Source of the DNA: a phage | Sequence record: PZ496581.1 | Reading direction: 5' to 3' (one strand) | Length of the DNA stretch: 64,000 bases | Part shown: positions 3,262-61,563 of the stretch, in pieces | Layout: every line of letters begins with the position of its first letter | How positions within the stretch are numbered: position 1 is the first letter of the stretch | Translations under genes and position numbers: made by a program | The notes under the pieces: generated by a model | What the model was told of the DNA's origin: nothing | Databases searched by the model: none | What the model saw: only the letters and a program-made list of their open reading frames with translations

Positions 3262-3292
3262 TATAATATCATGTTTGAAGCACATGTAAACT
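3262..3292 (-). promoter_or_regulatory. sigma70-type early promoter
   Basis: Duplicate of motA promoter cassette. Confidence 0.6.
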
Positions 3293-3304: not shown

Positions 3305-3332
3305 AAATGCACAAAAGGGAGCCGAAGCTCCC
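3305..3332 (-). terminator. rho-independent terminator after gene 52
   Basis: GGGAGC-UUCG-GCUCCC hairpin then U-rich tract. Confidence 0.6.
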
Positions 3333-5077: not shown

Positions 5078-5524
5078 TTAGTAACTCTGCAGAATGAATT
5101 TGAAATTATCTGCCAGAAGACGGTTCATTTCAGTGAGTGTTTGATATTCTGATGTATGGTTGCGAGTGAATGCCAGAGCCAATTGTCCTTTACCATAACC
5201 AGTAGTCAGTGGTTTCATGTTCTTAGCTGCAACAAAGATTACATCATATTCAATATTGTTAGTGCCCATGGTACGGGCTAGTTGCGAACGGCCTTGACGA
5301 ATGTGAGAAAGAATTGCATCCAACCCTTGTTTAGAACGTTGACGTCCTACAAAGAATCGTGCTGCTACTTGTCGCCAATCAGATGAACCTTTAACGAAGA
5401 AGTAAAAACCTTCACGAGAACGAAACTCTTTAGAAACTTCAGAACCGTATTCGCCATTACGAACTACTGCAACAACTTCACCGCCAACTGCCAGAAGGTC
5501 TTTACGAGTTAAATATTTGGACAT
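5078..5524 (-). CDS. ndd: nucleoid disruption protein Ndd
   Basis: 148 aa; ...[12 protein letters not shown]...[14 protein letters not shown]...[42 protein letters not shown] matches T4 Ndd as recalled. Confidence 0.8.
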
Positions 5525-5566
5525 GCTAATTTCCTCAATTGATTAATGTTTTTGTAATCCATGAGA

Positions 5567-5598
5567 GCATTATACTCTGCTCTCAAGAGTTTGTACAA
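5567..5598 (-). promoter_or_regulatory. sigma70-type early promoter (ndd)
   Basis: TTGTAC - 18 nt - TATAAT; -10 inside inverted repeat GAGAGC...GCTCTC. Confidence 0.55.
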
Positions 5599-5600
5599 TT

Positions 5601-5801
5601 TTATTCGGCTATATCAGAACGTTCAAAAAGCTCTTCAACAGTTAAACATTCAGTGTCATCTTCAATAAAGAATCGAGTCCAACACGTTGGGGCGATACAG
5701 TTATGAGTTTGTCCGGCGATAGAAGCTACACGAATAAGCTGCTGACCATTATTCAGGACAAATTTTTCACCAATTTCAACATCTTTAAAAAGCTTAGCCA
5801 T
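5601..5801 (-). CDS. hypothetical protein
   Basis: 66 aa ORF with its own early promoter. Confidence 0.45.
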   Translation of the reverse strand: MAKLFKDVEIGEKFVLNNGQQLIRVASIAGQTHNCIAPTCWTRFFIEDDTECLTVEELFERSDIAE

Positions 5802-5830
5802 TTTGTGTTCCTCATATTTTGATAGGACTA

Positions 5831-5859
5831 CTATACCATAATCCTACCTTGATGTAAAC
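5831..5859 (-). promoter_or_regulatory. sigma70-type early promoter
   Basis: GTTTAC - 18 nt - TATAGT. Confidence 0.5.
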
Positions 5860-6051: not shown

Positions 6052-6315
6052 TCATATCTCAACTTCCGCGAGTTCCATATATCCTTTGTTGATAACCTCT
6101 TTAAGGTCTTTAGAAAGAATAACACCAAAATGGTCGTTCATATGTCCATTAACCAGACGAGTTATTTCGGATTCAGATGACATATAAGGCACGTCTGAGT
6201 CCCAATGAGATAGACCCAAATGGGTATAAATCATCCCTTCGTCATCTGCAGTGTTGTACATTGAAACAAATTCGCCTGTTACTTTATGTTTTGCGTAGAA
6301 AAATTTAAATTTCAT
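6052..6315 (-). CDS. hypothetical protein
   Basis: 87 aa ORF with its own early promoter. Confidence 0.45.
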   Translation of the reverse strand: MKFKFFYAKHKVTGEFVSMYNTADDEGMIYTHLGLSHWDSDVPYMSSESEITRLVNGHMNDHFGVILSKDLKEVINKGYMELAEVEI

Positions 6316-6342
6316 GATGTTATCCTCTTTTAGATAGGACTA

Positions 6343-6371
6343 CTATATCATAGTCCTACTTAGTTGTAAAC
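6343..6371 (-). promoter_or_regulatory. sigma70-type early promoter in stem-loop
   Basis: GTTTAC - 18 nt - TATAGT; flanked by TAGGACTA...TAGTCCTA. Confidence 0.5.
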
Positions 6372-8162: not shown

Positions 8163-10378
8163 TTATTTGGCCGCTTCCACGGCCTTCATGAATTTAACGA
8201 TTTGAGCGACCTGTTCTTTGGAAAGAGTACCACGTCGTCCCATGTATTCTGACACAATATGATAATTGGTTTCGAATTCAATAACCATTTTATCATCATT
8301 ATCGTAAGCATTATCTTTAAGCTTATCGAAAATTTTAGCGCACAATTCTAACTTCCTGTTCAGGTCTCTGTTATCAGCACCTGCGAATCGATTCCATCCC
8401 CAGCGATTATTTACTGTTGAGAGTTTTGCAAAGTCTTTACTGATTTCTTTGTTCTTAGAGCTAAAATACTTACTAAGGAAGTTAAGCTCTTCGTTACGAG
8501 TAATATGATTCAAATAAGGCTGTGCTCTACGACTTGGTGATACATACTCATCATAATCCACTTTATCAATTAGCGTAATATAGTCGTTAATTGATTTTTC
8601 GAACAAGCATTCTACTTCACCAAGTTTACGAACTTTCTTAGCAATCTGTGGACGGACTACAGTGAACTCTTTAATACCTGACAAATCAGCAATACGGGTC
8701 AAGAAATTGGAGTCATAGTTCAACCAACCTTTATCTGCGTCAAGACATTCAGCATTAGAACGATTACGAACTATAGCATAACCTTGGATTTCATCAGCTT
8801 CACTCGCTGGAATAAAGAGATCTTCCGATACCCAAACATCGTTTTCGTTCTTGAAGAAACGATGGGCACTCGGTGATTTAGGGCGAGGCCCATTAGAACG
8901 AGTCTTGACTTCAATCCATGGCTTAACGATTTGTAAAAGCTCTGAAGTCTTGTACATGTTAATGTTGTCGCCATCAAAGATAACTTTAAGGCGTTCCAGA
9001 AGTTTCATTGCATCTTCGTCTGTAGGGTCAACGAATAGTACGCTTTTACCAAAACCGCGTGGAACTTTACCGGTTAATTTAACCTCGTCTTTAGACATTT
9101 CAATTGAATTAAGAGCTCGCATTAATGGAACGCGTCCCTTAACGTCGTCAATAACAATTTCAACGTTTTTAATGTTAATGCCAATCAGGCTATTAATTGA
9201 AATGGTTGTTGATGAGCTACCACTTTCACGAATACGACGAAGACGAGGGGATTCAACGATATCGTATACGACGCCAAGATTACACCACTCAGGCCCCATT
9301 TTAAAACGTTTGTACAACTCGGAATAAGTTAGTTGTTCTTTAGAGTATTTCAGTGATTCAATATTAGACCCGGCCTTTTCCATGTATTTACGAGCGGTAT
9401 AGCCAAGAGAATCAATTTCACGGAACACATGACGTGGGTATTTACAATCAATCCATTTCTTAGAATCTTCAGCGAACAATTTAGCATCGATTTCTGCAAC
9501 ACGTTTATGGATATTTGCTACTGTACGTTTATCAAATGACAATGCTTCACGAGACGGGGCTACATCTAGTTCACCCATAGGGAATTTAATATAAGCTGTA
9601 GTGCATCGCGTCATCATCCATGTTTGTTCTTTAATAACACTTCCGATTGGATATACAATACCACCATAAACAGCCATGATATTACCACGTTCACCCCATG
9701 GAGCTTCCTTGGCCAAATATACATCGTCAAATTCAGGAAAGTATTTAATATCTTTAACACCACGAACTTCTGCAATATCACCTAGAGGACGCATAACATA
9801 TGCAATTTCAGATGCGAACTTTTCAAAATCTTCTGGGTTAACCGGTACAACTACTTCTACACCCGTACGGTCATCGGGGCCCATCTTATCTACAAAGGTT
9901 GGCTTAATTTGTGGACCTGTGTCATCTTGGTAGATTACGTAACCACGAACTTCACCGTTGTGATAAGACGTAAGGTTAAACGTATCGGTATATGCTAGTG
10001 GAGCTTTAGAGCCGAGTCCGAATCCACCAATGAAATCGTTACTCGATGTTTTAGTTGAAGCAAAATATGAGTTATAGATTCCTGGCTCTTCGTCATTACC
10101 TCGAATGGTGAAATCACTCATACCAGGACCAAAGTCTCGAACTACAAAACGCGGGTCTAAACGACCTGGAGCCTGAACAATAAACTTATCAGTGCAACCA
10201 TTAAGAATTTGTCCATCGATACAGTTTGTGATTAATTCACGTACACAAGCCAATTCTTTGTTTGTATAAAGGTCTCATTAGACAAAATCTTATAAACTTT
10301 GCTATTGCCTTGAATAGTGAATGCTGTGCTCTTACCGCCTGAACCAATAATTGTTTCTTTAGCCGTTTCAATAATCAT
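8163..10378 (-). CDS. rIIA: rIIA protein, reading frame broken near 10271-10276
   Basis: Main 696-codon frame has GHKL N-box (VRELITNCID) but no ATG; rIIA-like N-terminus MIIETAKETIIGSGGKS... starts at 10378 in another frame. Confidence 0.65.
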
Positions 10379-14729: not shown

Positions 14730-15001
14730 TAGTAAGTTTCCTTCCAATAAGTTGTACCGTTTTCAGTGATTTCACGGAAGATACCATAGATAGGCATTTC
14801 ATCGCCGAGTTTTTCGTAAACGTAAACCACTTCAGTGTAGCATAAAAATTCGGTCCAGTTTTTCTGTACAACAACTAAATCAGGATTAAACAGAACATCT
14901 TCAAACTCATCGATGTTTGAATCAGTAGTTACGTTTTTAATGATTTGACGTTTCATAATATTCTCCTCTTGTTTTGATAGGTCTATAGTATCATAGACCA
15001 T
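14729..15001 (-). CDS. hypothetical protein
   Basis: 90 aa ORF with early promoter upstream. Confidence 0.5.
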
Positions 15002-15016
15002 AGTTGTTGTACATCA
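14983..15016 (-). promoter_or_regulatory. sigma70-type early promoter in stem-loop
   Basis: TGTACA-like -35, TACTAT -10; GGTCTAT...ATAGACC inverted repeat. Confidence 0.45.
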
Positions 15017-15538
15017 TTTTAGCAAAATAAAATCAACTTGTTCTGCCAATGAACGTCTGAACATTGATTGACAACTTCCGAGTATGAAATCAGGTGCTTC
15101 ATAGACCGCGATGTAGTATCCTTTAGCTTTCAAGAGTTCAACATCCACCTGGTCATCAAACCATGCATAAACCGCGTCAACACTTTCAAATCCAAAATAG
15201 AACCCTTGAGCCCAATCTTCACTCAATTCAAATGTGTGCTCAATTCTATAGTATCTTAAGATATTTTGTTCAAGGAGTTTGTCTTCATTTACTGTAGGAC
15301 GATTAGGGACGTTATAGTTGTCGCCGTGATGGTAGAAATTACCTGAGATTATTCCATGTTTATCAAGGAACTCCCATGTTTCTTCAGAGTTGTCGGTGCC
15401 CGACCAACCGTATGGTGAGCGAGGTTCTTTATTCCAAGAGGTTTCCCAAATTCTGACGGCTTTACCGTCTTCGATAGCAATTCCTGGTAATGATTCACGT
15501 TGAGTACAAAAACTACGTTCTACGCGGTAAACTAACAT
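15014..15538 (-). CDS. hypothetical protein
   Basis: 174 aa ORF with early promoter upstream. Confidence 0.5.
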   Translation of the reverse strand: MLVYRVERSFCTQRESLPGIAIEDGKAVRIWETSWNKEPRSPYGWSGTDNSEETWEFLDKHGIISGNFYHHGDNYNVPNRPTVNEDKLLEQNILRYYRIEHTFELSEDWAQGFYFGFESVDAVYAWFDDQVDVELLKAKGYYIAVYEAPDFILGSCQSMFRRSLAEQVDFILLK

Positions 15539-15562
15539 ATTATTCTCCTCTGGTTGATATGG

Positions 15563-15593
15563 TTATAATACCAAAACCAGAGGAGAAGTAAAC
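15563..15593 (-). promoter_or_regulatory. sigma70-type early promoter in stem-loop
   Basis: GTTTAC - 17 nt - TATTAT; CTCCTCTGGTT...AACCAGAGGAG. Confidence 0.55.
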
Positions 15594-15597
15594 AACT

Positions 15598-16017
15598 TTA
15601 TGCGAAAGCAGCTGGGCTATATTTTTTAATTTGGAATTCAGGAACTACCATGAACTGTCCAGCGAAAACGATGTTATAAAGCTTAACACCATCTTCTACC
15701 CAACGGTCGCTAATAAATCCAGCGATTTGCTTAGTTTTCCACGGTGTTCCATCAGTTGCCGCAGCAATAGTGAATTCATGGTCTTTTTCAACAGAAACTG
15801 ATCTGCATAGTCCCCATTTGAACGCTTTTTCTTCTGGTTCAATGAATTGGCTTGAGACATAACCAATGTTACCATCAGCGTCACGAACTTTAACTTCGTT
15901 ACGTCCAAAAACCGGATCACTCACAGAAAGAACTTCAACCAACTTCCCGGCAACTTTAGAGCGAGAAGCAACGGATACATATACATAATCACCTGTAGAG
16001 AGATTTACAATATTCAT
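15598..16017 (-). CDS. hypothetical protein, tandem paralog A
   Basis: 139 aa; shares SRSKxAGKLVEV, FKWxLC, GFISDxWVEDGxKLYNIVF with adjacent ORF. Confidence 0.5.
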   Translation of the reverse strand: MNIVNLSTGDYVYVSVASRSKVAGKLVEVLSVSDPVFGRNEVKVRDADGNIGYVSSQFIEPEEKAFKWGLCRSVSVEKDHEFTIAAATDGTPWKTKQIAGFISDRWVEDGVKLYNIVFAGQFMVVPEFQIKKYSPAAFA

Positions 16018-16026
16018 AATAATTCC

Positions 16027-16491
16027 TTAAGCTTTACGAGGAGACACATAGCGAGTGATTTCAGATTCTTTAACAACTCGGAAGTCACCTAAGAATACGA
16101 TATTGTATAACTTTTCACCATCTTCAACCCATTGGTCACTAATGAAGCCACACATAGTATCAGTTTTGCTTGGATAACCGTATTCGTCGATGTAATCAAA
16201 TTCTTTATCGGTTATAAATTCAACGCCTTTGCAAAGGGCCCATTTGAACTGTGTAGTAGGCTCAACGATATCGCTTGAAGCAAAGTGGGCACTTACACGA
16301 GTTTCCAAAAATTTAGGACTTACGTAAGCGTACTGAGTTTCAGTTTTTCCAGAACTAGGAATGATTCGAACTTTAACTTCTTTAATACGGCCCATGCCAT
16401 TAGTACGAAGTCCTACTACTTCAACCAGCTTTCCTGCAGCTTTAGAACGAGACGCTGTCGATACACGTTTAATTTCACCAATATTAATCAT
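16027..16491 (-). CDS. hypothetical protein, tandem paralog B
   Basis: 154 aa; paralog of 15598..16017. Confidence 0.5.
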   Translation of the reverse strand: MINIGEIKRVSTASRSKAAGKLVEVVGLRTNGMGRIKEVKVRIIPSSGKTETQYAYVSPKFLETRVSAHFASSDIVEPTTQFKWALCKGVEFITDKEFDYIDEYGYPSKTDTMCGFISDQWVEDGEKLYNIVFLGDFRVVKESEITRYVSPRKA

Positions 16492-16520
16492 ATTTTTTTC
16501 TCTCTTTGTTTAAGATAGAT

Positions 16521-16552
16521 TCATTATACTCCAACCATCCTTGGTTGTAAAC
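16521..16552 (-). promoter_or_regulatory. sigma70-type early promoter, repeated cassette copy 1
   Basis: GTTTAC - 18 nt - TATAAT; ttcattatactccaaccatccttggttgtaaac also at ~57981 and ~59001. Confidence 0.6.
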
Positions 16553-20403: not shown

Positions 20404-20435
20404 CTATAATATCATCGTCCTTGTTGTTTGTACAC
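20404..20435 (-). promoter_or_regulatory. sigma70-type early promoter (modA)
   Basis: GTGTAC -35, TATTAT -10. Confidence 0.5.
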
Positions 20436-21016
20436 TAAAAATTCAACATTTTCAAATGAATGATTTTGTATAATCGAGATAAAGGGTCATATTCTAAGTC
20501 TTCAATTTCCACAATCTCAAATCGAGAGATACCTGAGACCATGTACTCTTGTTCAGATTCAATCATATCTAGGACATCGATACGAGTTTCTTCCATAACA
20601 TGCTTAGGGTTCTTTCCGGCGAGTACAATGTTAACCATGTTTTGGTAGTAATCAAAAATGAATGGAGCATTCCTGAGACTAAGAATAGTGTACGTCTGAT
20701 ATTCCCATCTCCCGGAGAATTGACGAGCTGTACTGAAATCAGTTGTGAACGATGTTACTCGTCCAGGAGACCAATGGCATCCAACAGAAAGAAGGGAAAG
20801 ACGTTCTACTTCTTCTGGAGTTACACCACGGTAGAGTTCTACTGGTACTGTAGAAGTCATATGCTTACGAACAAGATGGTCTAATTCATAGTGGAAATCC
20901 GGGTCTTCCTTAGAATCGGTGCAAGCCCAGAGAATGTTTTGTTCTTGGCGGGTGAATTTGCTATCAATCAGATTTGTTAGGTATTCACGTTCTTGAAGTT
21001 CAGATTGACATGTCAT
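20435..21016 (-). CDS. modB: ADP-ribosyltransferase ModB-like
   Basis: 193 aa; paralog of 19769..20377. Confidence 0.6.
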   Translation of the reverse strand: MTCQSELQEREYLTNLIDSKFTRQEQNILWACTDSKEDPDFHYELDHLVRKHMTSTVPVELYRGVTPEEVERLSLLSVGCHWSPGRVTSFTTDFSTARQFSGRWEYQTYTILSLRNAPFIFDYYQNMVNIVLAGKNPKHVMEETRIDVLDMIESEQEYMVSGISRFEIVEIEDLEYDPLSRLYKIIHLKMLNF

Positions 21017-21042
21017 GATAGACCTCCATTTAAAGATAAGCC

Positions 21043-21071
21043 TATCATAACACGAGAGGAGGGAATGTAAA
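21043..21071 (-). promoter_or_regulatory. sigma70-type early promoter (modB)
   Basis: GTTTAC - 17 nt - TATGAT. Confidence 0.5.
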
Positions 21072-21232
21072 CTACTTTTTAAGCTTTCCTACTAAAGGTC
21101 CATCAGGACCAGGTTGTTCTAACATGAATAAGGATGCTTTAAAAAGCAATGTCAACCCTTTCACCATTCGATACCATGTCTCAAAGTCTTTTTCCTTGAT
21201 TTCTAGTAAGAATTTCTCTTTAAATTTCTCTT

Positions 21233-22267: not shown

Positions 22268-22495
22268 TTAACAGCAAACAACTTCTTCAGTATCGTAAGC
22301 ATTAATTGTTCCTCGAACAAAACGAACACCACCATCATCCCAGCGGATTTCGGCATTAAATTTGACGTCTTCACCATCCATCATGAATGAGTGTACGACT
22401 ACATCATCATAATATCCAAGACCGTACTTTAATGAAACTTCTTGAGCAATCAAAGCACCTAATGTGTTATTAGGTTTAATCCAACGATTTAACAT
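22268..22495 (-). CDS. hypothetical protein
   Basis: 75 aa ORF with early promoter and GAGGAG SD upstream. Confidence 0.45.
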   Translation of the reverse strand: MLNRWIKPNNTLGALIAQEVSLKYGLGYYDDVVVHSFMMDGEDVKFNAEIRWDDGGVRFVRGTINAYDTEEVVCC

Positions 22496-22518
22496 ATTGT
22501 TCTCCTCTTGAGTAAGTA

Positions 22519-22552
22519 AGATATCTTAACACAGTTTTTAGTGGTTGTAAAC
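22519..22552 (-). promoter_or_regulatory. sigma70-type early promoter
   Basis: GTTTAC - ~18 nt - TAAGAT, GAGGAG SD downstream. Confidence 0.45.
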
Positions 22553-22561
22553 TGTAGAAAC

Positions 22562-22588
22562 AAAAAAAAAGGAATCCCGAAGGATTCC
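22562..22588 (-). terminator. rho-independent terminator after soc
   Basis: GGAAUCC-UUCG-GGAUUCC hairpin followed by U9. Confidence 0.75.
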
Positions 22589-22597
22589 TTAAATTAT

Positions 22598-22871: not shown

Positions 22872-23087
22872 TTATGCATATTTCTTGTCGATATAAAAAT
22901 GACCACCGCCTTTAACAAAGACCCAGAATAGATTTCTATCGTCTGTATCCCGGCAGTAAAAATCATCTAACCGGAAATAGTTTTCTTCAGGGAATTCAAG
23001 ATGTCGCCCGAGTTCTATCGCATCAGAACCGAACGCTTTAGTAGCGGGACGACCATCATCGTCCCATTTCTTGAAATTGAATTGCAT
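22872..23087 (-). CDS. hypothetical protein
   Basis: 71 aa ORF between soc and 56. Confidence 0.45.
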   Translation of the reverse strand: MQFNFKKWDDDGRPATKAFGSDAIELGRHLEFPEENYFRLDDFYCRDTDDRNLFWVFVKGGGHFYIDKKYA

Positions 23088-26298: not shown

Positions 26299-26584
26299 CT
26301 GTGATTTCGGTTACGATATCTTTGTTATCGAAATTAGGGTCACAATACAAAACATAGTTGTACTGCATGATACCGCCAGACTTAAGTTGTTCAACAACTT
26401 TATTAACCATATTAGGACGGTCTCGTTTAGTGATGTTCATGATATCAGAGAAGATTTGTTGTTCAACATCTTCTTGATTTGCAGTCATTGACCACTCACA
26501 GAGGTCTTTATCATAACCTGCCGTAACTGGAGCCGGTGCACATGATACTGCAAGTAAGATTGCTGCCAATGATAACTTTTTCAT
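26291..26584 (-). CDS. sp: Spackle-like periplasmic protein
   Basis: 97 aa with N-terminal signal peptide; T4 Sp size and 61.3 position. Confidence 0.6.
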   Translation of the reverse strand: MKKLSLAAILLAVSCAPAPVTAGYDKDLCEWSMTANQEDVEQQIFSDIMNITKRDRPNMVNKVVEQLKSGGIMQYNYVLYCDPNFDNKDIVTEITGE

Positions 26585-26609
26585 TTTAACTCCTTAGTTG
26601 ATTTGATAG

Positions 26610-26642
26610 GACTACTATACTATAGTCCATCTATAATGTAAA
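26610..26642 (-). promoter_or_regulatory. sigma70-type early promoter in stem-loop (sp)
   Basis: GTTTAC - 18 nt - TATAGT; GGACTACTATA...TATAGTCC. Confidence 0.5.
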
Positions 26643-26647
26643 CAAGT

Positions 26648-27792: not shown

Positions 27793-28106
27793 ATTTCCTC
27801 GCAAAATGCCCATTCAGCGTGATAAACTGTAGCACCTTTAGTATTATTCATTTGAACTACGTCTACCGGAGAAATTACTCGATAGAGACGTGGTTCACCT
27901 CCATAAGAGCGTGCTGCTCGTCCTGCATAAATCTTTGCTAAACCGATATCTTCAGTAAAGAATACACGATCCAAGTTTTTCTTACGTCCAGTTTCAGACA
28001 GAACTCCTGTTTCCTCAGGAGGACAAAGCATGTTTTCGATGTTAGCTGAACTACTTGAACCGTGATAAAAAATCTTAAATTCTGCTTTACAATCGATGGT
28101 TTTCAT
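27789..28106 (-). CDS. hypothetical protein with H-G-S ... Y-F motif (possible mini ADP-ribosyltransferase-like fold)
   Basis: 105 aa; FYHGSSS...DRVFFTED...IYAGRA pattern reminiscent of PARP/Tpt1 NAD-binding core. Confidence 0.45.
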   Translation of the reverse strand: MKTIDCKAEFKIFYHGSSSSANIENMLCPPEETGVLSETGRKKNLDRVFFTEDIGLAKIYAGRAARSYGGEPRLYRVISPVDVVQMNNTKGATVYHAEWAFCEEI

Positions 28107-28128
28107 TTTGTTCTCCAGTAGTTGATAG

Positions 28129-28161
28129 GACTATAATAACACAACTACTGGAGAAGTAAAC
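28129..28161 (-). promoter_or_regulatory. sigma70-type early promoter in stem-loop
   Basis: GTTTAC - 17 nt - TATTAT; 12-bp inverted repeat CTCCAGTAGTTG / CAACTACTGGAG. Confidence 0.55.
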
Positions 28162-28536
28162 TTAAAAACGTAATTTAGATATATCTGCGTTGATTTCGTT
28201 TTGGTTTGCATCGTATGCAATTAAACGAACCGCTTTAGATGGGTCATTCAATGCATAGAAATGATGGAACATTGCTCGAACGATATCACCATTTACGAGT
28301 TCTACCTGGATAGGAGAACCTTTTTCGAGTTGGAAATGTTCATAAGCTTTGATGGTTCGTAGATAATCAAGTTTTTGATTTCCGGCTCCAACTATTTGTA
28401 CGATACGTTTGCCCATGTTTTCCATACGAGATACAATAGTTTTAGGAGCAAGAATAACGTAGGTTGCCAGTGGAGAAACTACTTCAACAGTTGTGTTTTC
28501 GGTGATTGCAGTAAAAATTGCTTGAGACATATTCAT
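28162..28536 (-). CDS. hypothetical protein
   Basis: 124 aa ORF with early promoter. Confidence 0.5.
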   Translation of the reverse strand: MNMSQAIFTAITENTTVEVVSPLATYVILAPKTIVSRMENMGKRIVQIVGAGNQKLDYLRTIKAYEHFQLEKGSPIQVELVNGDIVRAMFHHFYALNDPSKAVRLIAYDANQNEINADISKLRF

Positions 28537-28565
28537 AATGTTTTCCTCTTGGTTGGTGTAAGTAC

Positions 28566-28594
28566 ATCATATCATGCCTAGAGGAAGATGTAAA
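28566..28594 (-). promoter_or_regulatory. sigma70-type early promoter
   Basis: GTTTAC - 18 nt - TATGAT. Confidence 0.5.
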
Positions 28595-28600
28595 CCCCGA

Positions 28601-28624
28601 AAGGAGACCGAAGTCTCCTTTTTT
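28601..28624. terminator. UUCG/CGAA hairpin after gene 41, terminator-like on both strands
   Basis: GGAGAC-cgaa-GTCTCC; T6 follows on plus strand, A6 precedes. Confidence 0.45.
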
Positions 28625-41040: not shown

Positions 41041-41060
41041 ACTCCAAATGGGACCGAAGT
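41041..41060 (-). promoter_or_regulatory. hairpin in regA-43 intergenic leader (terminator or translational operator)
   Basis: GGGAC-UUCG-GUCCC ~55 nt upstream of gene 43 start; weak U tract. Confidence 0.35.
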
Positions 41061-41069
41061 CCCATTGCT

Positions 41070-48633: not shown

Positions 48634-49192
48634 ATAAAAAATCCAAACTAGGCGAATCGCTAACAACTTCCTTCTTTTCAGCCCCAGGAGCTTTATAAGC
48701 GGATTCTTCATAATGCGTCATTTTATCGTAGATGTCTTGAATAAACGTTTCATCTACCAACGCTACCATATCATCGTCATGACTGTCGTAGACATTATGA
48801 ACGAAGTAACTATATTTCTTTGCAACTTCCTTACGTTCTTTTTTGATACGTTGGACAAAAGCATTAAAACAAGCTCGAGTTATGTATGCATGTGGGTTAT
48901 TGTACTTAGTTTCGTCGAAATTATGAAGTCCCTTAATAGAGGCTTCAATCCCATCTGCAATCATCTCCTGTTTCCAAGACTGGGTATATCCTGAAAAGTT
49001 GAAACGTTTGGACAGGCCTTCGGCGATAAGCATAATTGCTAAACCGATGGTATCATTCTGACGAATAATTTTGTTTGGGTCTTTATTATTTAAGAGCTCC
49101 TTTTTCCACTCGATTATAGCGGCGAGAAGCTCTTTATTATTCACATAGTTATTTTTAGGTTTTTGTTCAGTCATAAGTACCTCTTGGCTCAA
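48617..49192 (-). CDS. 55: late sigma factor gp55
   Basis: 191 aa; ...[62 protein letters not shown]... matches T4 gp55. Confidence 0.9.
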
Positions 49193-49246
49193 TTCATAGG
49201 TCTATTATATCATAATATTTAGAGACCTATCTTAAAGCACGAGATA

Positions 49247-49740: not shown

Positions 49741-50117
49741 TTTACCGCCTTAACAATTTTCAGGTCAACGAATTTTTTCTTACGTTGATTTTTCATACGA
49801 CGGATAGTCTTTTCAGAGATTTCATGTTTCTGATAAGCTTTAGATTCAACACCAAATGCAGCAACGTCAAATTCAGAAAGAATATATTGTACTAGAATTT
49901 CACGAATAGAATTACGTCCAATTTTCTGGTCGTGTTTTTGCATGATTTCATAAAGACGGAATTCCCACGCGTCAAGAACTTGAGGAGTAACAATATTGCC
50001 GGATTCCAGAAGAGCAACAACTTTATCGAAAGCGAAAGAATTAACTACGTTTTTGATTTTAGTAGACATATTATTTTCCTCGGTTATTTTATTATCCAAC
50101 GAGAGAATTATACTCAT
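49737..50117 (-). CDS. hypothetical protein
   Basis: 126 aa ORF with early promoter. Confidence 0.45.
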   Translation of the reverse strand: MSIILSLDNKITEENNMSTKIKNVVNSFAFDKVVALLESGNIVTPQVLDAWEFRLYEIMQKHDQKIGRNSIREILVQYILSEFDVAAFGVESKAYQKHEISEKTIRRMKNQRKKKFVDLKIVKAVK

Positions 50118-50138
50118 CTCTCAAGAGTTTGTATACTA
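50105..50138 (-). promoter_or_regulatory. sigma70-type early promoter, related to ndd promoter
   Basis: GTATAC -35, TATAAT -10 inside GAGAGA...TCTCTC; shares ctctcaagagtttgta with 5581..5596. Confidence 0.5.
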
Positions 50139-50375
50139 TTTTTTAAGCATGAAAAGTAAGTAATTTGTATCACGTGGAGTAATATCAACACCCATATCAA
50201 AGATGCCTTTATAGATTGGGTATTTGTTTTCGGTTGTATCGAAGCTGAAACTATTTCCATCACAACTAACAGTAATAGCATCTGTTAAAATGTCATACTC
50301 AATCCTAACAATTGAATCCCCAATTTTAACGTCGAGGTGTTTTTTGAATTTGATAAAATCTAATTCTTGGGCCAC
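50136..50375 (-). CDS. hypothetical protein
   Basis: 79 aa ORF with early promoter. Confidence 0.45.
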   Translation of the reverse strand: MAQELDFIKFKKHLDVKIGDSIVRIEYDILTDAITVSCDGNSFSFDTTENKYPIYKGIFDMGVDITPRDTNYLLFMLKK

Positions 50376-50405
50376 GATATTTTCCTCATTTTAAGACGAT
50401 AGGAA

Positions 50406-50435
50406 GATAATAACATGTCTTCCTATCGTTGTACA
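50406..50435 (-). promoter_or_regulatory. sigma70-type early promoter in stem-loop
   Basis: ATGTAC -35, TATTAT -10; GATAGGAAGA...TCTTCCTATC. Confidence 0.5.
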
Positions 50436-50438
50436 TTA

Positions 50439-51122: not shown

Positions 51123-51330
51123 TTACTGAAAGGTCTCTTTAAGACCGATTGATTCTAAACGCTGAATAAAAGTCAACATTGGGATATAGTCCCAATGTGT
51201 TTTAGACGTTTGATAAGTACGGACGCCATTAGCAATTTCAACGTTCAAATCGGAAATGGTAATGAATATCGGACGTTCGTTATTTACATTAAGAGATAGA
51301 ACAACTTTCTTCGAATTCAGACTAATCATT
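51123..51330 (-). CDS. hypothetical protein
   Basis: Trimmed to MISLNSKK...; ORF-track extension overlaps its own promoter. Confidence 0.4.
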
Positions 51331-51358
51331 TTATTTTCCTCTATAGTAGATGGTTTAA

Positions 51359-51387
51359 TCTTAACACGTCTATTGAGGATGTAAACT
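51359..51387 (-). promoter_or_regulatory. sigma70-type early promoter
   Basis: GTTTAC - 17 nt - TAAGAT. Confidence 0.45.
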
Positions 51388-54412: not shown

Positions 54413-54882
54413 TTTAAACTCTTTCTAAGTTGCTTCTTAAATGAAGCTATTAACTGTGTTTTGGTGTCAGATTCATTATATTCAAATCCTCTTTGAAGCA
54501 TCTCAGCCATCATTTCCTCTTTACCTAGTCTTGAGAACTCTTTAGTTTTGTCTGGAACAAAATTAGGATGGATATTATTATCAGAATAATCTTGTTTCAA
54601 ATAAGCAAGAAGAGCTTCAAGCCATTCGAGGTAGTCGACATCACGTCCTTTAAGACCGGAACGGTTGAACTTATGCTTCATTTGACCTTCTGCTGCGTTG
54701 CACAGATTACAGAGTAATCCACGAACTCTACCGGCTTTTGGCCCGTTTAATTCGTGGTCGTGGTCAAGATGGTTACCTTGAACATCAGGGTCTAATTCAC
54801 GGTGGCAAATAGGACACTTACCGTTCTGTGCATCATAAAATTTTTGTTTTTCTTCTTTATATTTTGCGCCTGATAATAACAT
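54409..54882 (-). CDS. 49: endonuclease VII (Holliday junction resolvase)
   Basis: 157 aa; near-identical to T4 endo VII as recalled. Confidence 0.9.
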   Translation of the reverse strand: MLLSGAKYKEEKQKFYDAQNGKCPICHRELDPDVQGNHLDHDHELNGPKAGRVRGLLCNLCNAAEGQMKHKFNRSGLKGRDVDYLEWLEALLAYLKQDYSDNNIHPNFVPDKTKEFSRLGKEEMMAEMLQRGFEYNESDTKTQLIASFKKQLRKSLK

Positions 54883-55643: not shown

Positions 55644-55853
55644 TTAACCCCGGAGTTTATTGAGCTCTTCATAATCAATCCAGGATTCTAGTCCGGACGG
55701 CAAAGCTGATTCAATTTCCCAAAGAAGCTCTTCAATTTTCTGAAGACGATCTAATTCTTCAACAGGAATAGTAACCATTGATGGAGCTCTTGCTGCACTA
55801 ATATCGTAAATCATATTTACCCCAGTTTGACCATGCAATCGCCATATTTCCAT
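55644..55853 (-). CDS. hypothetical protein
   Basis: 69 aa ORF. Confidence 0.4.
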   Translation of the reverse strand: MEIWRLHGQTGVNMIYDISAARAPSMVTIPVEELDRLQKIEELLWEIESALPSGLESWIDYEELNKLRG

Positions 55854-56032
55854 TTAGAAATAGACTTTTCGCCATTAGAATAATAAACTTCGAGTTTAGC
55901 ACGATTATTTTTAATTTGAATAACCTTGGCTGTCATCAAAGTTCCATACCCATAGTAAACTGCAACTTCATCACCTACATATACCGCGTTTCCACGGTAG
56001 TCATGGATATAATCAGTTCCTTCAAGCATCAT
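55817..56032 (-). CDS. hypothetical protein
   Basis: 71 aa ORF. Confidence 0.4.
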   Translation of the reverse strand: MMLEGTDYIHDYRGNAVYVGDEVAVYYGYGTLMTAKVIQIKNNRAKLEVYYSNGEKSISKWKYGDCMVKLG

Positions 56033-57003: not shown

Positions 57004-57953
57004 TATAAAACCTCAATGGCATTTCGTAAACCATCCGCTTTTGCATTAAGAGCTTTTAATGATTTAGTTTGTTCTGCAATCTGGGCTTCGACTTCTTTCA
57101 GACGAGATTTGAGATATTCGCGTTCTTCTCTTAAGTTATCAACTTTTTCTACTTTAGGTTCTTTAATAGGCTTAGGTTTATACGTATTAGGGTTCTTCAG
57201 CTTAATTTGAATACGAGAACTGAATAACATTGAACCGTTATCTTCGGTTTCACTATGCATTTCTACCACGTCCATGATTCTTAACATCATGCGAAGTTTA
57301 TAAGACAGCGAACGAATGGTTTTATTGTGCTTCTTAATTTCTTCAGCTTTCATGGTGCCGAGATTACGTGAGTAGTAATAAGGAACCTGAATATCAATTG
57401 ATAATGATGCGGTACCATTACCAGTTGGTTTGAATACTGCAGTAACCCAATCTTTAACATGAACTTTATTTGTACGATCATCGCCACCTGTGAATAATTT
57501 ACAAGAATGTTTAAAAAGCATATTCACTTGGTTATTGAATTCACAAGCAAATTTATCAGCAAATTTAGTTTCAGGAATGGTAGTTAACCAATCAGCCAAA
57601 TGAGTCTTTTTAACATCATTAACAATAGTGAATTCAACCAAATCGGTTTTAGATGTCACAGATTTAATAAAGCTCGGCTTCATAAAGTTTTTAATGTTAT
57701 CGCGAGCTACAGTAGAAGATAATAAACGAGAACGTTTGAACCATTGAAGCAACGTCCCTAACGAATGAGAATACGCATTTTGAGTATCTTTACAGATATG
57801 ATTTTCTTGGCCTATGTATGTACCAAAATCGCGAAGAATACCACTTACTACATCTCGGTGTGGAACATCAAATCCTAATGAACCAGAAGCACGTTGGGCA
57901 TGAACGTTAGCGATAAGACCTGCAAAGTATTCAATGTAATGTGAACGTGTCAT
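57003..57953 (-). CDS. hypothetical protein with C-terminal coiled coil
   Basis: 316 aa; driven by repeated promoter cassette. Confidence 0.5.
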   Translation of the reverse strand: MTRSHYIEYFAGLIANVHAQRASGSLGFDVPHRDVVSGILRDFGTYIGQENHICKDTQNAYSHSLGTLLQWFKRSRLLSSTVARDNIKNFMKPSFIKSVTSKTDLVEFTIVNDVKKTHLADWLTTIPETKFADKFACEFNNQVNMLFKHSCKLFTGGDDRTNKVHVKDWVTAVFKPTGNGTASLSIDIQVPYYYSRNLGTMKAEEIKKHNKTIRSLSYKLRMMLRIMDVVEMHSETEDNGSMLFSSRIQIKLKNPNTYKPKPIKEPKVEKVDNLREEREYLKSRLKEVEAQIAEQTKSLKALNAKADGLRNAIEVL

Positions 57954-57979
57954 AATATTTTCCTCTCGTTAAGATAAAT

Positions 57980-58011
57980 TCATTATACTCCAACCATCCT
58001 TGGTTGTAAAC
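57980..58011 (-). promoter_or_regulatory. sigma70-type early promoter, repeated cassette copy 2
   Basis: Same ~35-nt sequence as 16521..16552. Confidence 0.6.
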
Positions 58012-58015
58012 TATT

Positions 58016-58975
58016 TTATGATTTTAATGCATTCATTGCGTTAAAAAGTTTAGAATACTGCAACTGGAGATTCGTTACAACACTTTGAGCATCACGAAGC
58101 TTAGCTTGTGCTTTGTCAAGTTCAACGGATAGTTGGTCTACAGTGGCCTTGATTTGATTGTAATGGTAATCTTCGGCCGGAAGAAGGTCATTAGAAACAT
58201 TTAGTTTTACTGCAGACAGTTTGCACACATTTGGCAAACCTTTAAACATTGATTTACCCGAAGTAGAATATGCACCTAGAACTTCAGCATTGCCAGTTGG
58301 GGTTGCAGTAATTGACGCTTCGAACGTTGCATTTTCCTTTTTAAGATTTTGATAGTATTCAGAGTCTTTGTGCCACCATGACGCAGGAACCTTTTTACCA
58401 ATAGATACACGAGCCTGGATAGCGATATGGCCCTTATTCTTGATAGGGTCGATAATATTAAGCTCACGAGAATAAATTGCTTTAATCTGGTGGATATTAT
58501 CACCTAAAACTTCCAACGCTTGGTGGAATACACGAGCAACGTTATCATTCTTAGGTTTATACGTAAGAGTGAACTCGTTCTCACTGATAACCATGATTTC
58601 CAACTTATCGTAAGTATATTTCAAATGTTTCATGTTAATTGCTTGAGGACGAATACGAGAAGCAATGGCCATCAGATTGTTAAGGTTATTCCGGAACTGC
58701 TTAGCGAAATATTGTCCTTCACCGCCAATACAAAAATTACGAAGTTTCTGTTTGGCTAATAAACGGCTGAACTCACCATTTTTAATGAACTCTTTAACGG
58801 GTGTGTTAGTAACGCATTCAAATTGAGTAAACTTACGAGAATTAATCCCATAATATGAACAGATTTCCTCAATCTCTTCAGGAGTCTTTACAGGCATACG
58901 GATAGGATTAGGACCTGGGGTATATGCGTTCGAGGTAAATTCTTTGATAAGTTCTCTACGTGTAATAGAAGCCAT
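58016..58975 (-). CDS. hypothetical protein with C-terminal coiled coil
   Basis: 319 aa; driven by repeated promoter cassette. Confidence 0.5.
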   Translation of the reverse strand: MASITRRELIKEFTSNAYTPGPNPIRMPVKTPEEIEEICSYYGINSRKFTQFECVTNTPVKEFIKNGEFSRLLAKQKLRNFCIGGEGQYFAKQFRNNLNNLMAIASRIRPQAINMKHLKYTYDKLEIMVISENEFTLTYKPKNDNVARVFHQALEVLGDNIHQIKAIYSRELNIIDPIKNKGHIAIQARVSIGKKVPASWWHKDSEYYQNLKKENATFEASITATPTGNAEVLGAYSTSGKSMFKGLPNVCKLSAVKLNVSNDLLPAEDYHYNQIKATVDQLSVELDKAQAKLRDAQSVVTNLQLQYSKLFNAMNALKS

Positions 58976-58999
58976 TTTGTGTTCCTCATGTTGAAAAAT

Positions 59000-59031
59000 T
59001 TATTATACTCCAACCATCCTTGGTTGTACAT
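59000..59031 (-). promoter_or_regulatory. sigma70-type early promoter, repeated cassette copy 3
   Basis: Same cassette with ATGTAC -35 variant. Confidence 0.55.
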
Positions 59032-59457: not shown

Positions 59458-59985
59458 TTATGCGTGAACCGTCTTTAAACGTTCTTCAAATTTCCGAAGA
59501 GTACTAATACGTTCTGCTTTCTGTTTTGTATAGTTTGCAATACGTTCTGAAGTGAGAGCGTATCGTTCGTTTACTGTTTCTTTCATGAAGTCAGGGATTT
59601 CACGAGAAGCTTTAATTTCATCAAACTTATCGAGTACTGCCTGGTCTTCAGCAATTAAATTTTCGTACATCTCGATATCTTTCTTGATGAAGTCGATATC
59701 TTCCTGGGTTACTTTGGATAAACGAGATGCTTTATCCTTTTTGTACTGCTCGTTAGTTTCACGAGACCAGAATAATGTACGTTTTTTGTTAGTGTTTTTG
59801 TAGACTTCCACAATTCCAACTGAATCGATGATAACAATCCAATTCCAGCGAGATTTGAAAATCTGACCTCCGTCCACGATAATCTCATTACCATAAGCAA
59901 TGTCATTAAAGAACTTACTTTGTGCTTCAGATTTAAATTTACCGTCGTTATAATTTACCAGGTTGAAAATATCTTTAGCGTTCAT
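59458..59985 (-). CDS. hypothetical protein
   Basis: 175 aa ORF with early promoter. Confidence 0.5.
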   Translation of the reverse strand: MNAKDIFNLVNYNDGKFKSEAQSKFFNDIAYGNEIIVDGGQIFKSRWNWIVIIDSVGIVEVYKNTNKKRTLFWSRETNEQYKKDKASRLSKVTQEDIDFIKKDIEMYENLIAEDQAVLDKFDEIKASREIPDFMKETVNERYALTSERIANYTKQKAERISTLRKFEERLKTVHA

Positions 59986-60011
59986 GTTTTACCTCCAGTA
60001 GTTGATAGGTC

Positions 60012-60041
60012 TATAATAACATAACCATAGACCTTGTAAAC
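60012..60041 (-). promoter_or_regulatory. sigma70-type early promoter in stem-loop
   Basis: GTTTAC -35, TATTAT -10; AGGTCTAT...ATAGACCT. Confidence 0.5.
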
Positions 60042-61517: not shown

Positions 61518-61530
61518 TACTTTTTAAAAA

Positions 61531-61563
61531 TATTTTAACCCCCTAAAGGGACCCGAAGGTCCC
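61531..61563 (-). terminator. possible terminator
   Basis: GGGACC-UUCG-GGUCCC hairpin; interrupted U tract. Confidence 0.4.

Follow-up and report, generated by a model that had tools for sequence, protein, structure and literature searches.

Promoter early stem-loops (PeSLs) were defined in the phages RB49 and phi1 as strong early promoters combined with a stem-loop that mostly lies in the interval from the -35 to the -10 box or overlaps the latter (Arbiol et al. 2010, PMC2839356). One RB49 PeSL stem-loop cut the expression of a downstream lacZ gene about as much as rrnB T1 did. Recombination between PeSLs was demonstrated as well, and PeSL mini-circles were observed in RB49/phi1 (PMC2839356). 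PeSLs are also known from PST/T4 and nt-1/KVP40, where the stem consensus differs from case to case (Comeau et al. 2014, PMC4122927). A further trait of PeSLs is a preference for hyperplastic regions, beside small open reading frames of unknown function. RB69 and translation go unmentioned in the 2010 paper, in which the words 'translational' and 'ribosome' do not occur (PMC2839356). Here, we describe hairpins embedded in the early promoters of a 64,000-nucleotide stretch of phage DNA (sequence record PZ496581.1; this whole stretch is called the window). The initial annotation of the window had likened these promoters to elements of T4-type genomes, a parallel that PMC2839356 and PMC4122927 bear out.

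A second related system is formed by the translational gating hairpins of T4 e, soc, 49, and I-TevI (Uzan & Miller 2010, PMC3014915). In these, the 5' arm contains the promoter or lies downstream of it, while the Shine-Dalgarno (SD) sequence and/or the AUG is covered by the 3' arm. The long read-through RNA is silent, while the local transcript, which lacks the 5' arm, is translated. T4 gates contain a late promoter dependent on gp55 (TATAAATA) and prevent the early synthesis of late proteins. In RB69, 57 early promoters have been predicted and a C at -3 to -1 was noted, with hairpins unmentioned (Nolan et al. 2006, PMC1524935); our literature searches turned up no account of hairpins in early promoters of RB69.

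The window elements satisfy the structural definition of a PeSL, namely a promoter, a stem-loop, and dispersed repeat copies, and they are RB69-group PeSLs and not a new kind of element. Like PeSLs, they comprise a strong sigma-70-like early promoter with an A/T-rich upstream region, located between the upstream stop codon and the SD/ATG, and a stem-loop within or overlapping that promoter. Many similar copies are dispersed, and some indel junctions between close relatives fall in them. The stems differ from the polyG/polyC stems of RB49 and from the PST/T4 stems just upstream of the promoter in being AU-rich and specific to the phage group (TAGGNCTA/TAGNCCTA, or the anti-SD pairing TTCTCC...GGAGAA). 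Unlike PeSLs, the cassettes have no U-tract or other terminator-like feature, and nearly half of their 3' arms cover the ribosome-binding site (RBS), a point on which the PeSL paper is silent. The PeSL concept is thereby extended to the RB69 group and tied to the translational gating hairpins of T4.

Early promoters of the window and their hairpins

The window shares 94-99% identity with RB69 and other Mosigvirus phages (position 1 of RB69 corresponds to window position 8163) and carries nearly all of its genes on the minus strand. It corresponds to the early region of this RB69-like T-even phage, starting upstream of rIIA, continuing with 39, motB, dexA, dda, modA/B, soc, 61, 41, uvsX, 43, 45, 46, 47, 55, nrdD, and 49, and ending at nrdC. 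A generic sigma-70 scan of the window was not discriminating (61 matches vs 52 expected), and a phage-specific pattern was therefore used, consisting of [AG]T[GT]TAC, 16-18 nt, and TAnnnT, then an SD sequence and a start codon. It matched about 28 early promoters of the sigma-70 type (GTTTAC, N17-18, TAnnnT), all on the minus strand and each just 5' of a gene. Many of these cassettes sit before small hypothetical open reading frames of the RB69 annotation, and in many the motif AG-N-CCTATCAA directly follows the -10 box on its 3' side. The start site (+1) is placed 7 nt past the -10 box. Given the C at -3 to -1 in RB69 early promoters (PMC1524935), it would be the A of CCTATC.

Inverted repeats of 7-14 bp are present on the minus strand at all eight sites for which the initial annotation had named them. 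Its description of these sites as GTTTAC-type promoters holds in general but not for site 49205-49240, where no GTTTAC -35 box is found. That such cassettes occur throughout the window is true of the majority of promoters: about 17 of the 28 have an embedded hairpin and about 11 have none, several of the latter being preceded by a separate hairpin upstream. Likewise, the repeats span the spacer and the +1 region in one class (class A below), whereas in several cases including 28121-28161 the 3' arm is the SD region.

When RNA folding was compared with dinucleotide shuffles, the eight sites gave z-scores of -1.6 to -5.8, about half of them individually significant. Over 27 window promoters, the mean z-score of the minimum free energy (MFE) was -1.36, with 8 promoters below -2. 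In a spacer-swap permutation, which leaves every consensus motif in place, the spacers of the window paired better with their own downstream sequence than with that of other promoters (p<5e-5). Perfect inverted repeats of at least 8 bp with loops of up to 30 nt number 52 in the window (34.5+-5 in Markov simulations); 7 of them lie within promoter cassettes (3.3% of the window). The 64 kb hold three inverted repeats of at least 12 bp, all within promoter cassettes. The initial annotation had named an equal repeat frequency in shuffled sequences as an outcome that would refute its proposal, and this outcome was not observed; dinucleotide-shuffle, spacer-shuffle, and swap controls all reject chance. 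An Rfam 15 scan of the whole window matched no family at the gathering score.

The hairpins fall into four classes (Table 1). Class A pairs a 5' arm in the spacer with a 3' arm that consists of the end of the -10 box and the discriminator to about +1. Class B also has its 5' arm in the spacer, with the 3' arm over the SD sequence. Class C is a 6-bp hairpin entirely within the spacer. In class D, the -10 hexamer and discriminator form the 5' arm, and the 3' arm lies over the SD sequence and AUG. The class D arrangement upstream of modB is found again, with covarying stems, before the corresponding gene of many phages. Whatever the class, the 5' arm (spacer or -10/discriminator) is located 5' of the putative start site, so that only RNA arriving from upstream would be able to fold the hairpin.

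Pairing across T4-like phages

Two samples of T4-like phages were compared. The first was a pattern scan of IMG/VR that, from 107 T4-like loci plus the window, RB69, Sf23, and ESCO47, gave 293 unique and 180 representative cassettes. The second was anchored on DexA and blind to promoter sequence (52 loci, 970 kb, 147 cassettes); here, all 264 matches to the promoter pattern lie on the sense strand. The swap test gave z=-13.9 for the 180 cassettes of set 1 and z=-12.4 for the 147 of set 2. Stems of at least 9 bp occur in 49/180 cassettes of set 1 vs 8/180 after spacer shuffling. Among the pooled 283 representative cassettes, 115 have a stem of at least 8 bp (61 class A, 23 class B, 28 class D, and 3 other). 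When class D was tested by swapping, pairing at or below -12 kcal/mol was found in 8.5% of cassettes with their own partners and in 0.6% with swapped ones.

The two arms covary. Where the spacer motif [AG]GGNCT meets a discriminator AGNCC, the two N bases are Watson-Crick partners in 33 of the 34 unique cassettes; the remaining one has G.U, and there is no mismatch. The spacer motif itself is found in 17/64 representative cassettes with AGNCC vs 2/116 without. At motB.2, a compensatory change from G-C to A-U converts TCTGG/CCAGA of the window into TCTAG/CTAGA of ESCO47 (TTCTCCTCTAG/CTAGAGGAGAA), and at the sp promoter, one lineage carries GGACTA/TAGTCC and another GGTCTATGGTA/TACTATAGACC, containing a G.U pair. 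The GAGAG family exists in three covarying versions, and covarying variants of the promoter 5598 stem are found in RB69 and Sf23. The gene that starts at 59985 keeps a conserved leader from phage to phage while the partner of the spacer switches: the spacer of promoter 60041 pairs with -10/+1 in the window, and in orthologous contigs the pairing is with the SD sequence (CTCCAGTAG/CTACTGGAG).

Mismatches carry information on the strand that pairs. Single internal mismatches in stems of at least 8 bp are G.U rather than A.C in 18 vs 3 cases in set 1 and in 15 vs 2 in set 2. With each distinct stem of the pooled sets counted once, the numbers are 28 vs 5 (p=1e-4, against the control ratio of 0.525). 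This ratio, G.U/(G.U + A.C), is 0.42 for shuffled spacers and 0.525 for swapped partners. Since G.U pairing in the sense strand corresponds to an A.C mismatch in the complementary strand, the observed bias favors pairing of the sense-strand RNA and argues against cruciforms and symmetric protein sites.

Promoter spacers are therefore not free sequence and would be under selection to pair in read-through RNA. With regard to the spacers as such, they belong overall to a small number of recurring families. One of these, (T/A)TCTGCTT(T/C)AAACATGA, is found at 2941-2969 and 3263-3291 of the window and in many IMG/VR cassettes; a TGCTTtA within it looks like a MotA box but stands only 7 nt from the -10 box, a spacing unsuited to a middle promoter. 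Site 49240 and the recurrent TGCTTtAAACATGA spacers were also considered as MotA boxes and rejected on account of their spacing to the -10 box.

Spacers of class C form a further group. Those of promoters 16552, 58011, and 59031 are identical, and the hairpins of the class (16532-16547, 57991-58006, and 59011-59026, minus strand) combine a conserved loop AAGGA(U/C) with covarying stems: CAACCA/TGGTTG, CATCCA/TGGATG, ACCACA/TGTGGT, and ACACC/GGTGT (also in RB69, Sf23, and the contigs L023, L028, and L029). Among the 180 spacers of set 1, 9 have an internal stem of at least 6 bp (about 1 expected) and 16 have the motif A[AGT]GGA[TC] (4.8 expected). The AAGGA(U/C) loop resembles the consensus bound by CsrA, in which GGA sits within a hairpin loop (ACARGGAUGU). 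The literature searched did not link CsrA to T4.

Predicted sequestration of the ribosome-binding site

At window promoters 28161, 15593, 21072, 51386, and 28595, the SD sequence or AUG forms part of the 3' arm, and in the 283 representative cassettes the SD sequence or start codon is covered in 51 of the 115 stems of at least 8 bp (44%). As a measure of accessibility, the free energy needed to open positions -16 to +3 around the start codon was computed for a promoter's own transcript and for the read-through transcript; promoters 61517 and 57031, whose start codons were mis-assigned, were excluded. The RBS was costlier to open in the read-through RNA by 13.6 kcal/mol for promoter 28161, 16.3 for 21072, and 17.3 for 15593, and by 5.4 for 51386 and 3.8 for 28595. 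Class A and hairpin-less promoters together differed by about 0-2.5 kcal/mol, and class A by about 0-1 (e.g., +0.2 at 50436). The initial annotation had expected read-through transcripts to fold into hairpins that sequester the promoter-derived sequence. The predicted location of the 5' arm upstream of the start and the G.U bias agree with this, but sequestration of the RBS, which concerns about 44% of stems including that of promoter 28161, had been overlooked.

Classes B and D share the exact geometry of the T4 e/soc/49/I-TevI gates, provided that the start sites lie where promoter sequence puts them. The promoters here are of the sigma-70 early type (GTTTAC, TAnnnT) and not gp55 late promoters, and the cassettes would thus work like the T4 gate family without belonging to it. 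The predicted effect is reversed, as protein would be made only while the early promoter is active.

Promoter cassettes as proposed insulated early units

We regard these elements as composites of an early promoter and PeSL-type hairpin punctuation that insulate each early gene from upstream transcription, an explanation that we hold to be somewhat probable. In this model, the promoter DNA would also encode a sense-strand RNA hairpin, for which the otherwise variable spacer (in class D, the -10 hexamer and discriminator) serves as the 5' arm. The start site would coincide with the 3' end of the 5' arm or lie past it, so that a local transcript lacks this arm and leaves the RBS free, while a read-through transcript, where one is made, would fold into the hairpin. 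In classes B and D, translation of the read-through RNA would be blocked, and protein would consequently be made only while the gene's own early promoter fires. In classes A and C, the structure may act as an intercistronic hairpin that protects a 3' end or attenuates transcription, a role that elsewhere would fall to a separate upstream hairpin.

A lack of space may decide between the two forms. The -35 box lies a median of 2 nt from the upstream stop codon in promoters with an embedded hairpin and 12 nt otherwise, and the hairpin would be built into the promoter wherever the stop codon directly adjoins the -35 box. A GC hairpin within 62 nt upstream accompanies 6/62 promoters with a spacer-embedded stem of at least 9 bp vs 64/168 without (p=2e-5), an exclusion seen only if 'embedded' denotes stems whose 5' arm lies in the spacer. 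The data are suggestive of mutual exclusion between embedded and upstream hairpins, and the embedded hairpin would then be a space-saving stand-in for a separate intercistronic one.

In its most specific form, the proposal states that in about one fifth of T4-like early promoters the spacer or -10 box doubles as an anti-RBS arm that silences all transcripts except those from the gene's own promoter, and that otherwise the spacer arm replaces an intercistronic hairpin. We put this forward tentatively, as a possibility that is more doubtful than insulation in general. If true, the synthesis of ModB and MotB.2 would be confined to the immediate-early window despite middle-mode read-through RNA, in a mirror image of the late-gene gates of e, soc, and 49. 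This would offer a simple, testable mechanism for how some immediate-early proteins cease to be made once the early promoters shut off. The cassettes would also represent natural insulated expression units, which is of relevance for the engineering and annotation of T-even phages.

Several observations weigh against this explanation. The +1 sites were deduced from promoter sequence and not from transcript ends, and about 40% of the window promoters have no embedded hairpin. According to the computed opening costs, class A stems leave RBS accessibility unchanged, and two functions must therefore be invoked. A role of classes A and C in attenuation is conjecture, because no stem has a U-tract. 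On the comparative side, counting pairs in 105 cassettes, aligned on the -10 box without selection, gives a modest though significant signal (double changes 48 vs 34+-4, and 12 vs 7.5+-2.1), which can be attributed to a nearly invariant 3' arm and to stems occurring in two registers; the covariation of the N bases was the more informative comparison. The G.U bias of set 1 weakens to 14 vs 3 (p=0.011) once likely shared events are collapsed. Moreover, the cassettes share descent and the two contig sets share some genomes, so that the statistics overstate independence. Finally, the mutual exclusion is borderline in set 2 alone (4/28 vs 29/85, p=0.056) and absent there when all stems of at least 9 bp are pooled (p=0.70). 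With these points taken into account, insulation of each early gene from read-through RNA appears plausible from the sequence comparisons.

Table 1. Promoter cassettes of the window and the hairpins associated with them (z, folding z-score)
Feature	Span (strand)	Class	5' arm	3' arm	z	Remarks
Promoter 28161	28106..28161 (-)	B	TTCTCCAGTAGTTG, 28155-28142 (spacer)	CAACTACTGGAGAA, 28124-28111 (over SD GGAG)	-5.2	flagged in the initial annotation; perfect 14-bp stem, -21.4 kcal/mol; -35 GTTTAC 28161-28156, -10 TATTAT 28138-28133; upstream of RB69ORF040c homologue, ATG at 28106
Promoter 15593 (motB.2)	15538..15593 (-)	B	TTCTCCTCTGGTT, 15587-15575 (spacer)	AACCAGAGGAGAA, 15555-15543 (SD)	-5.8	13 bp
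Promoter 51386	51329..51386 (-)	B	TCCTCAATAG, 51379-51370	CTATAGAGGA, 51346-51337 (SD)		one A.A mismatch
Promoter 28595	28536..28621 (-)	B	28586-28577	28552-28543		weak stem
Hairpin just 5' of promoter 28595	28621-28600 (-)					terminator-like, UUCG loop, GGAGACuucgGUCUCC then UUU
Promoter 21072 (modB)	21015..21072 (-)	D	ATGATAG, 21048-21042 (-10 + discriminator)	CTATCAT, 21021-21015 (SD + start codon)	-2.55	MFE fold longer
Promoter 50436	50375..50436 (-)	A	ACGATAGGAAGA, 50429-50418	TCTTCCTATCGT, 50407-50396	-3.9	12-bp stem around -10 box
Promoter 60041	59985..60041 (-)	A	AGGTCTAT, 60034-60027	ATAGACCT, 60014-60007	-1.8	8-bp stem
Promoter 6371	6315..6371 (-)	A	TAGGACTA, 6358-6351	TAGTCCTA, 6342-6335	-2.5	8-bp stem
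Promoter 5859	5801..5859 (-)	A	TAGGATTA, 5846-5839	TAGTCCTA, 5830-5823	-4.2	one U.G wobble
Promoter 5598	5524..5598 (-)	A	TGAGAGCA, 5585-5578	TGCTCTCA, 5569-5562	-3.5	-35 TTGTAC; repeat family D10
Promoter 50135	50069-50135	A	GAGAGA	TCTCTC		paralogue of promoter 5598 cassette
Promoter 15014	14956..15014 (-)	A	GGTCTAT, 14999-14993	ATAGACC, 14986-14980	-1.6	7-bp stem
Promoter 26643 (sp)	26584..26643 (-)	A	GGACTA, 26628-26623	TAGTCC, 26614-26609	-1.8	extends with bulge
Promoter 16552 (motB)	16491..16552 (-)	C				hairpin CAACCAaggaTGGTTG, 16547-16532; repeat families D2, D7
Promoter 58011	57953..58011 (-)	C				spacer hairpin CAACCAaggaTGGTTG, as at 16552
Promoter 59031	58975..59031 (-)	C				spacer hairpin CAACCAaggaTGGTTG, as at 16552
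Site 49240	49174..49245 (-)		ATAGGTCT	AGACCTAT	-2.7	eighth site of the initial annotation; 8-bp inverted repeat, loop 19; upstream of gene 55; -10 TATAAT then AGACCTATG
Promoter 22552	22495..22590 (-)				+0.8	contrast case, no embedded hairpin
Terminator directly 5' of promoter 22552	22590-22569 (-)					canonical, AAGGAATCCuucgGGATTCCTT then T7
Hairpin 5' of promoter 61517	~61530-61560 (-)					UUCG loop
Hairpin 5' of promoter 3291	~3305-3330 (-)					UUCG loop

Termination and other explanations

The most serious alternative is that the hairpins are terminators or attenuators of upstream transcription, as proposed for PeSLs, whose purpose would be to limit transcript build-up over tandem promoters and to shield the downstream promoter from occlusion. 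The reporter result for the RB49 stem-loop (PMC2839356) speaks for it, as do the tendency of embedded stems and upstream GC hairpins to exclude each other and the G.U bias, which fits any RNA hairpin. Promoters 22552, 61517, and 3291, moreover, follow true UUCG-loop terminators and have no embedded stem. The embedded stems themselves are unlike terminators, however: they are AU-rich, measure 7-14 bp, have loops of up to 24 nt, and run into A-rich tails (AUCAAAACAA, AACAAAAUG) with no U-tract after any of them. A terminator scan of the window flagged none of them on the minus strand, and no terminator between tandem promoters such as 28595 and 28161. The suggestion of the initial annotation that they may act as termination sites is unsupported by their sequence, and a reading as intrinsic terminators was rejected for want of a GC-rich stem and U-tract. 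About 44% of the 3' arms, finally, sit exactly on the SD sequence or AUG, which termination would not need. We thus judge termination or attenuation to be rather unlikely as the main role. A literature search found no usable T4 transcript-end maps.

It may also be that the repeats act mainly as DNA, as recombination hotspots or cruciforms that shuffle gene cassettes, with the RNA hairpin a by-product. The cassettes are indeed the main dispersed repeats of the window, PeSL mini-circles occur in RB49/phi1 (PMC2839356), and several gene-content differences described in the next section have cassettes at their ends. Yet homologous recombination requires direct repeats and leaves both the covariation of the arms and the switch of spacer partner unexplained, a cruciform needs both strands to pair, against the G.U excess on the sense strand, and more than half of the indel events involve no cassette while many gene boundaries carry a promoter anyway. 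This explanation therefore seems improbable to us. Even less can be said for palindromes that serve as operators of a dimeric DNA-binding regulator of early promoters. A loose consensus with the -10 box at its center (TAGGNCTA...TAGNCCTA) does unite the class A arms, but the central base covaries freely (A-T, T-A, or G-C), the arms are found in two or more registers and enclose variable loops, G.U pairs are tolerated, and the arm sequences of classes B, C, and D are unrelated. About two thirds of the promoters that have the 3' half, furthermore, lack the 5' half, and we consider operators very improbable. The same or slightly less holds for chance, i.e., for the composition of an AT-rich, partly self-complementary promoter consensus. 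Several stems are just 6-8 bp with z of about -1.5 to -1.8, and the CTATAG within the TACTAT-AG consensus is itself palindromic; the shuffling and swapping controls nevertheless all reject chance, and all three of the longest inverted repeats lie in promoters. Chance can be dismissed for the set as a whole and is possible for weak sites such as 15014 and 26643.

Separate hairpins in front of early promoters deserve a note of their own. GC-rich UUCG-loop hairpins followed by U runs are located directly 5' of promoters 22552, 28595, 61517, and 3291. Such UUCG hairpins or intrinsic terminators 5' of T-even early promoters occupy the same slot as the embedded stems, between the upstream gene and the next early promoter. 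They differ from these in being GC-rich, closed by a tetraloop, followed by a U-tract, and set apart from the promoter.

Cassettes as repeats and possible recombination sites

The direct-repeat families D1-D5, D7, D9, and D10 of the window, 27-64 nt in length, are promoter cassettes. The initial annotation had proposed that these may act as recombination cassettes and, as a check, to see whether their boundaries coincide with gene-content breakpoints; the comparison with related phages supports this role in part. The window lacks RB69 ORF012c and motB.1, and the junction (16485-16549) consists of 65 nt that match both flanking RB69 promoter cassettes. In ESCO47, the segments matching 15592-16543 and 28141-28589 are replaced or deleted, with cassettes at both sides of each, and an indel breakpoint relative to RB69 lies at 51326-51340, near promoter 51386. 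Over all loci, 20 indel events were counted, of whose 40 ends 13 lie in cassettes (5.5% of the window); 11 of the 20 events have no cassette at either end. By a rough boundary count, about 24% of gene boundaries carry a promoter, and breakpoints are strongly enriched in cassettes relative to random positions, though weakly so when gene boundaries serve as the null. As dispersed repeats of 40-65 nt, the cassettes appear to serve sometimes as crossover points, while a preference for them over other gene boundaries is unsupported. Their repeat nature explains some of the gene-content differences among close relatives.

Exchange may also occur within a promoter. At the modA promoter (20406-20435), the spacer and discriminator are wholly different in the window, RB69, and ESCO47, with flanks that are 73-94% identical, which suggests that the promoter core was exchanged as a module. 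Two segments of about 200 bp, 22872-23085 (between soc and gene 56) and 55783-56029 (near 49.1/nrdC), correspond to unrelated sequence in RB69 and other contigs and have no promoter cassette at either end.

Two further features of the window lie outside the cassettes listed above. At 54469-54495 (minus strand), in the 3' end of the gene 49 coding sequence and just 5' of nrdD, a member of repeat family D7 has TATAAT followed by GAATCT; this promoter-like repeat is possibly an internal promoter. At 41047-41066, a hairpin of 8 perfectly matched base pairs closes a loop of 4 nt (AATGGGAC/GTCCCATT); it is located about 60-80 nt 5' of the start of gene 43 (40988), near the position at which the DNA polymerases of T4 and RB69 repress their own translation through an RNA operator hairpin.

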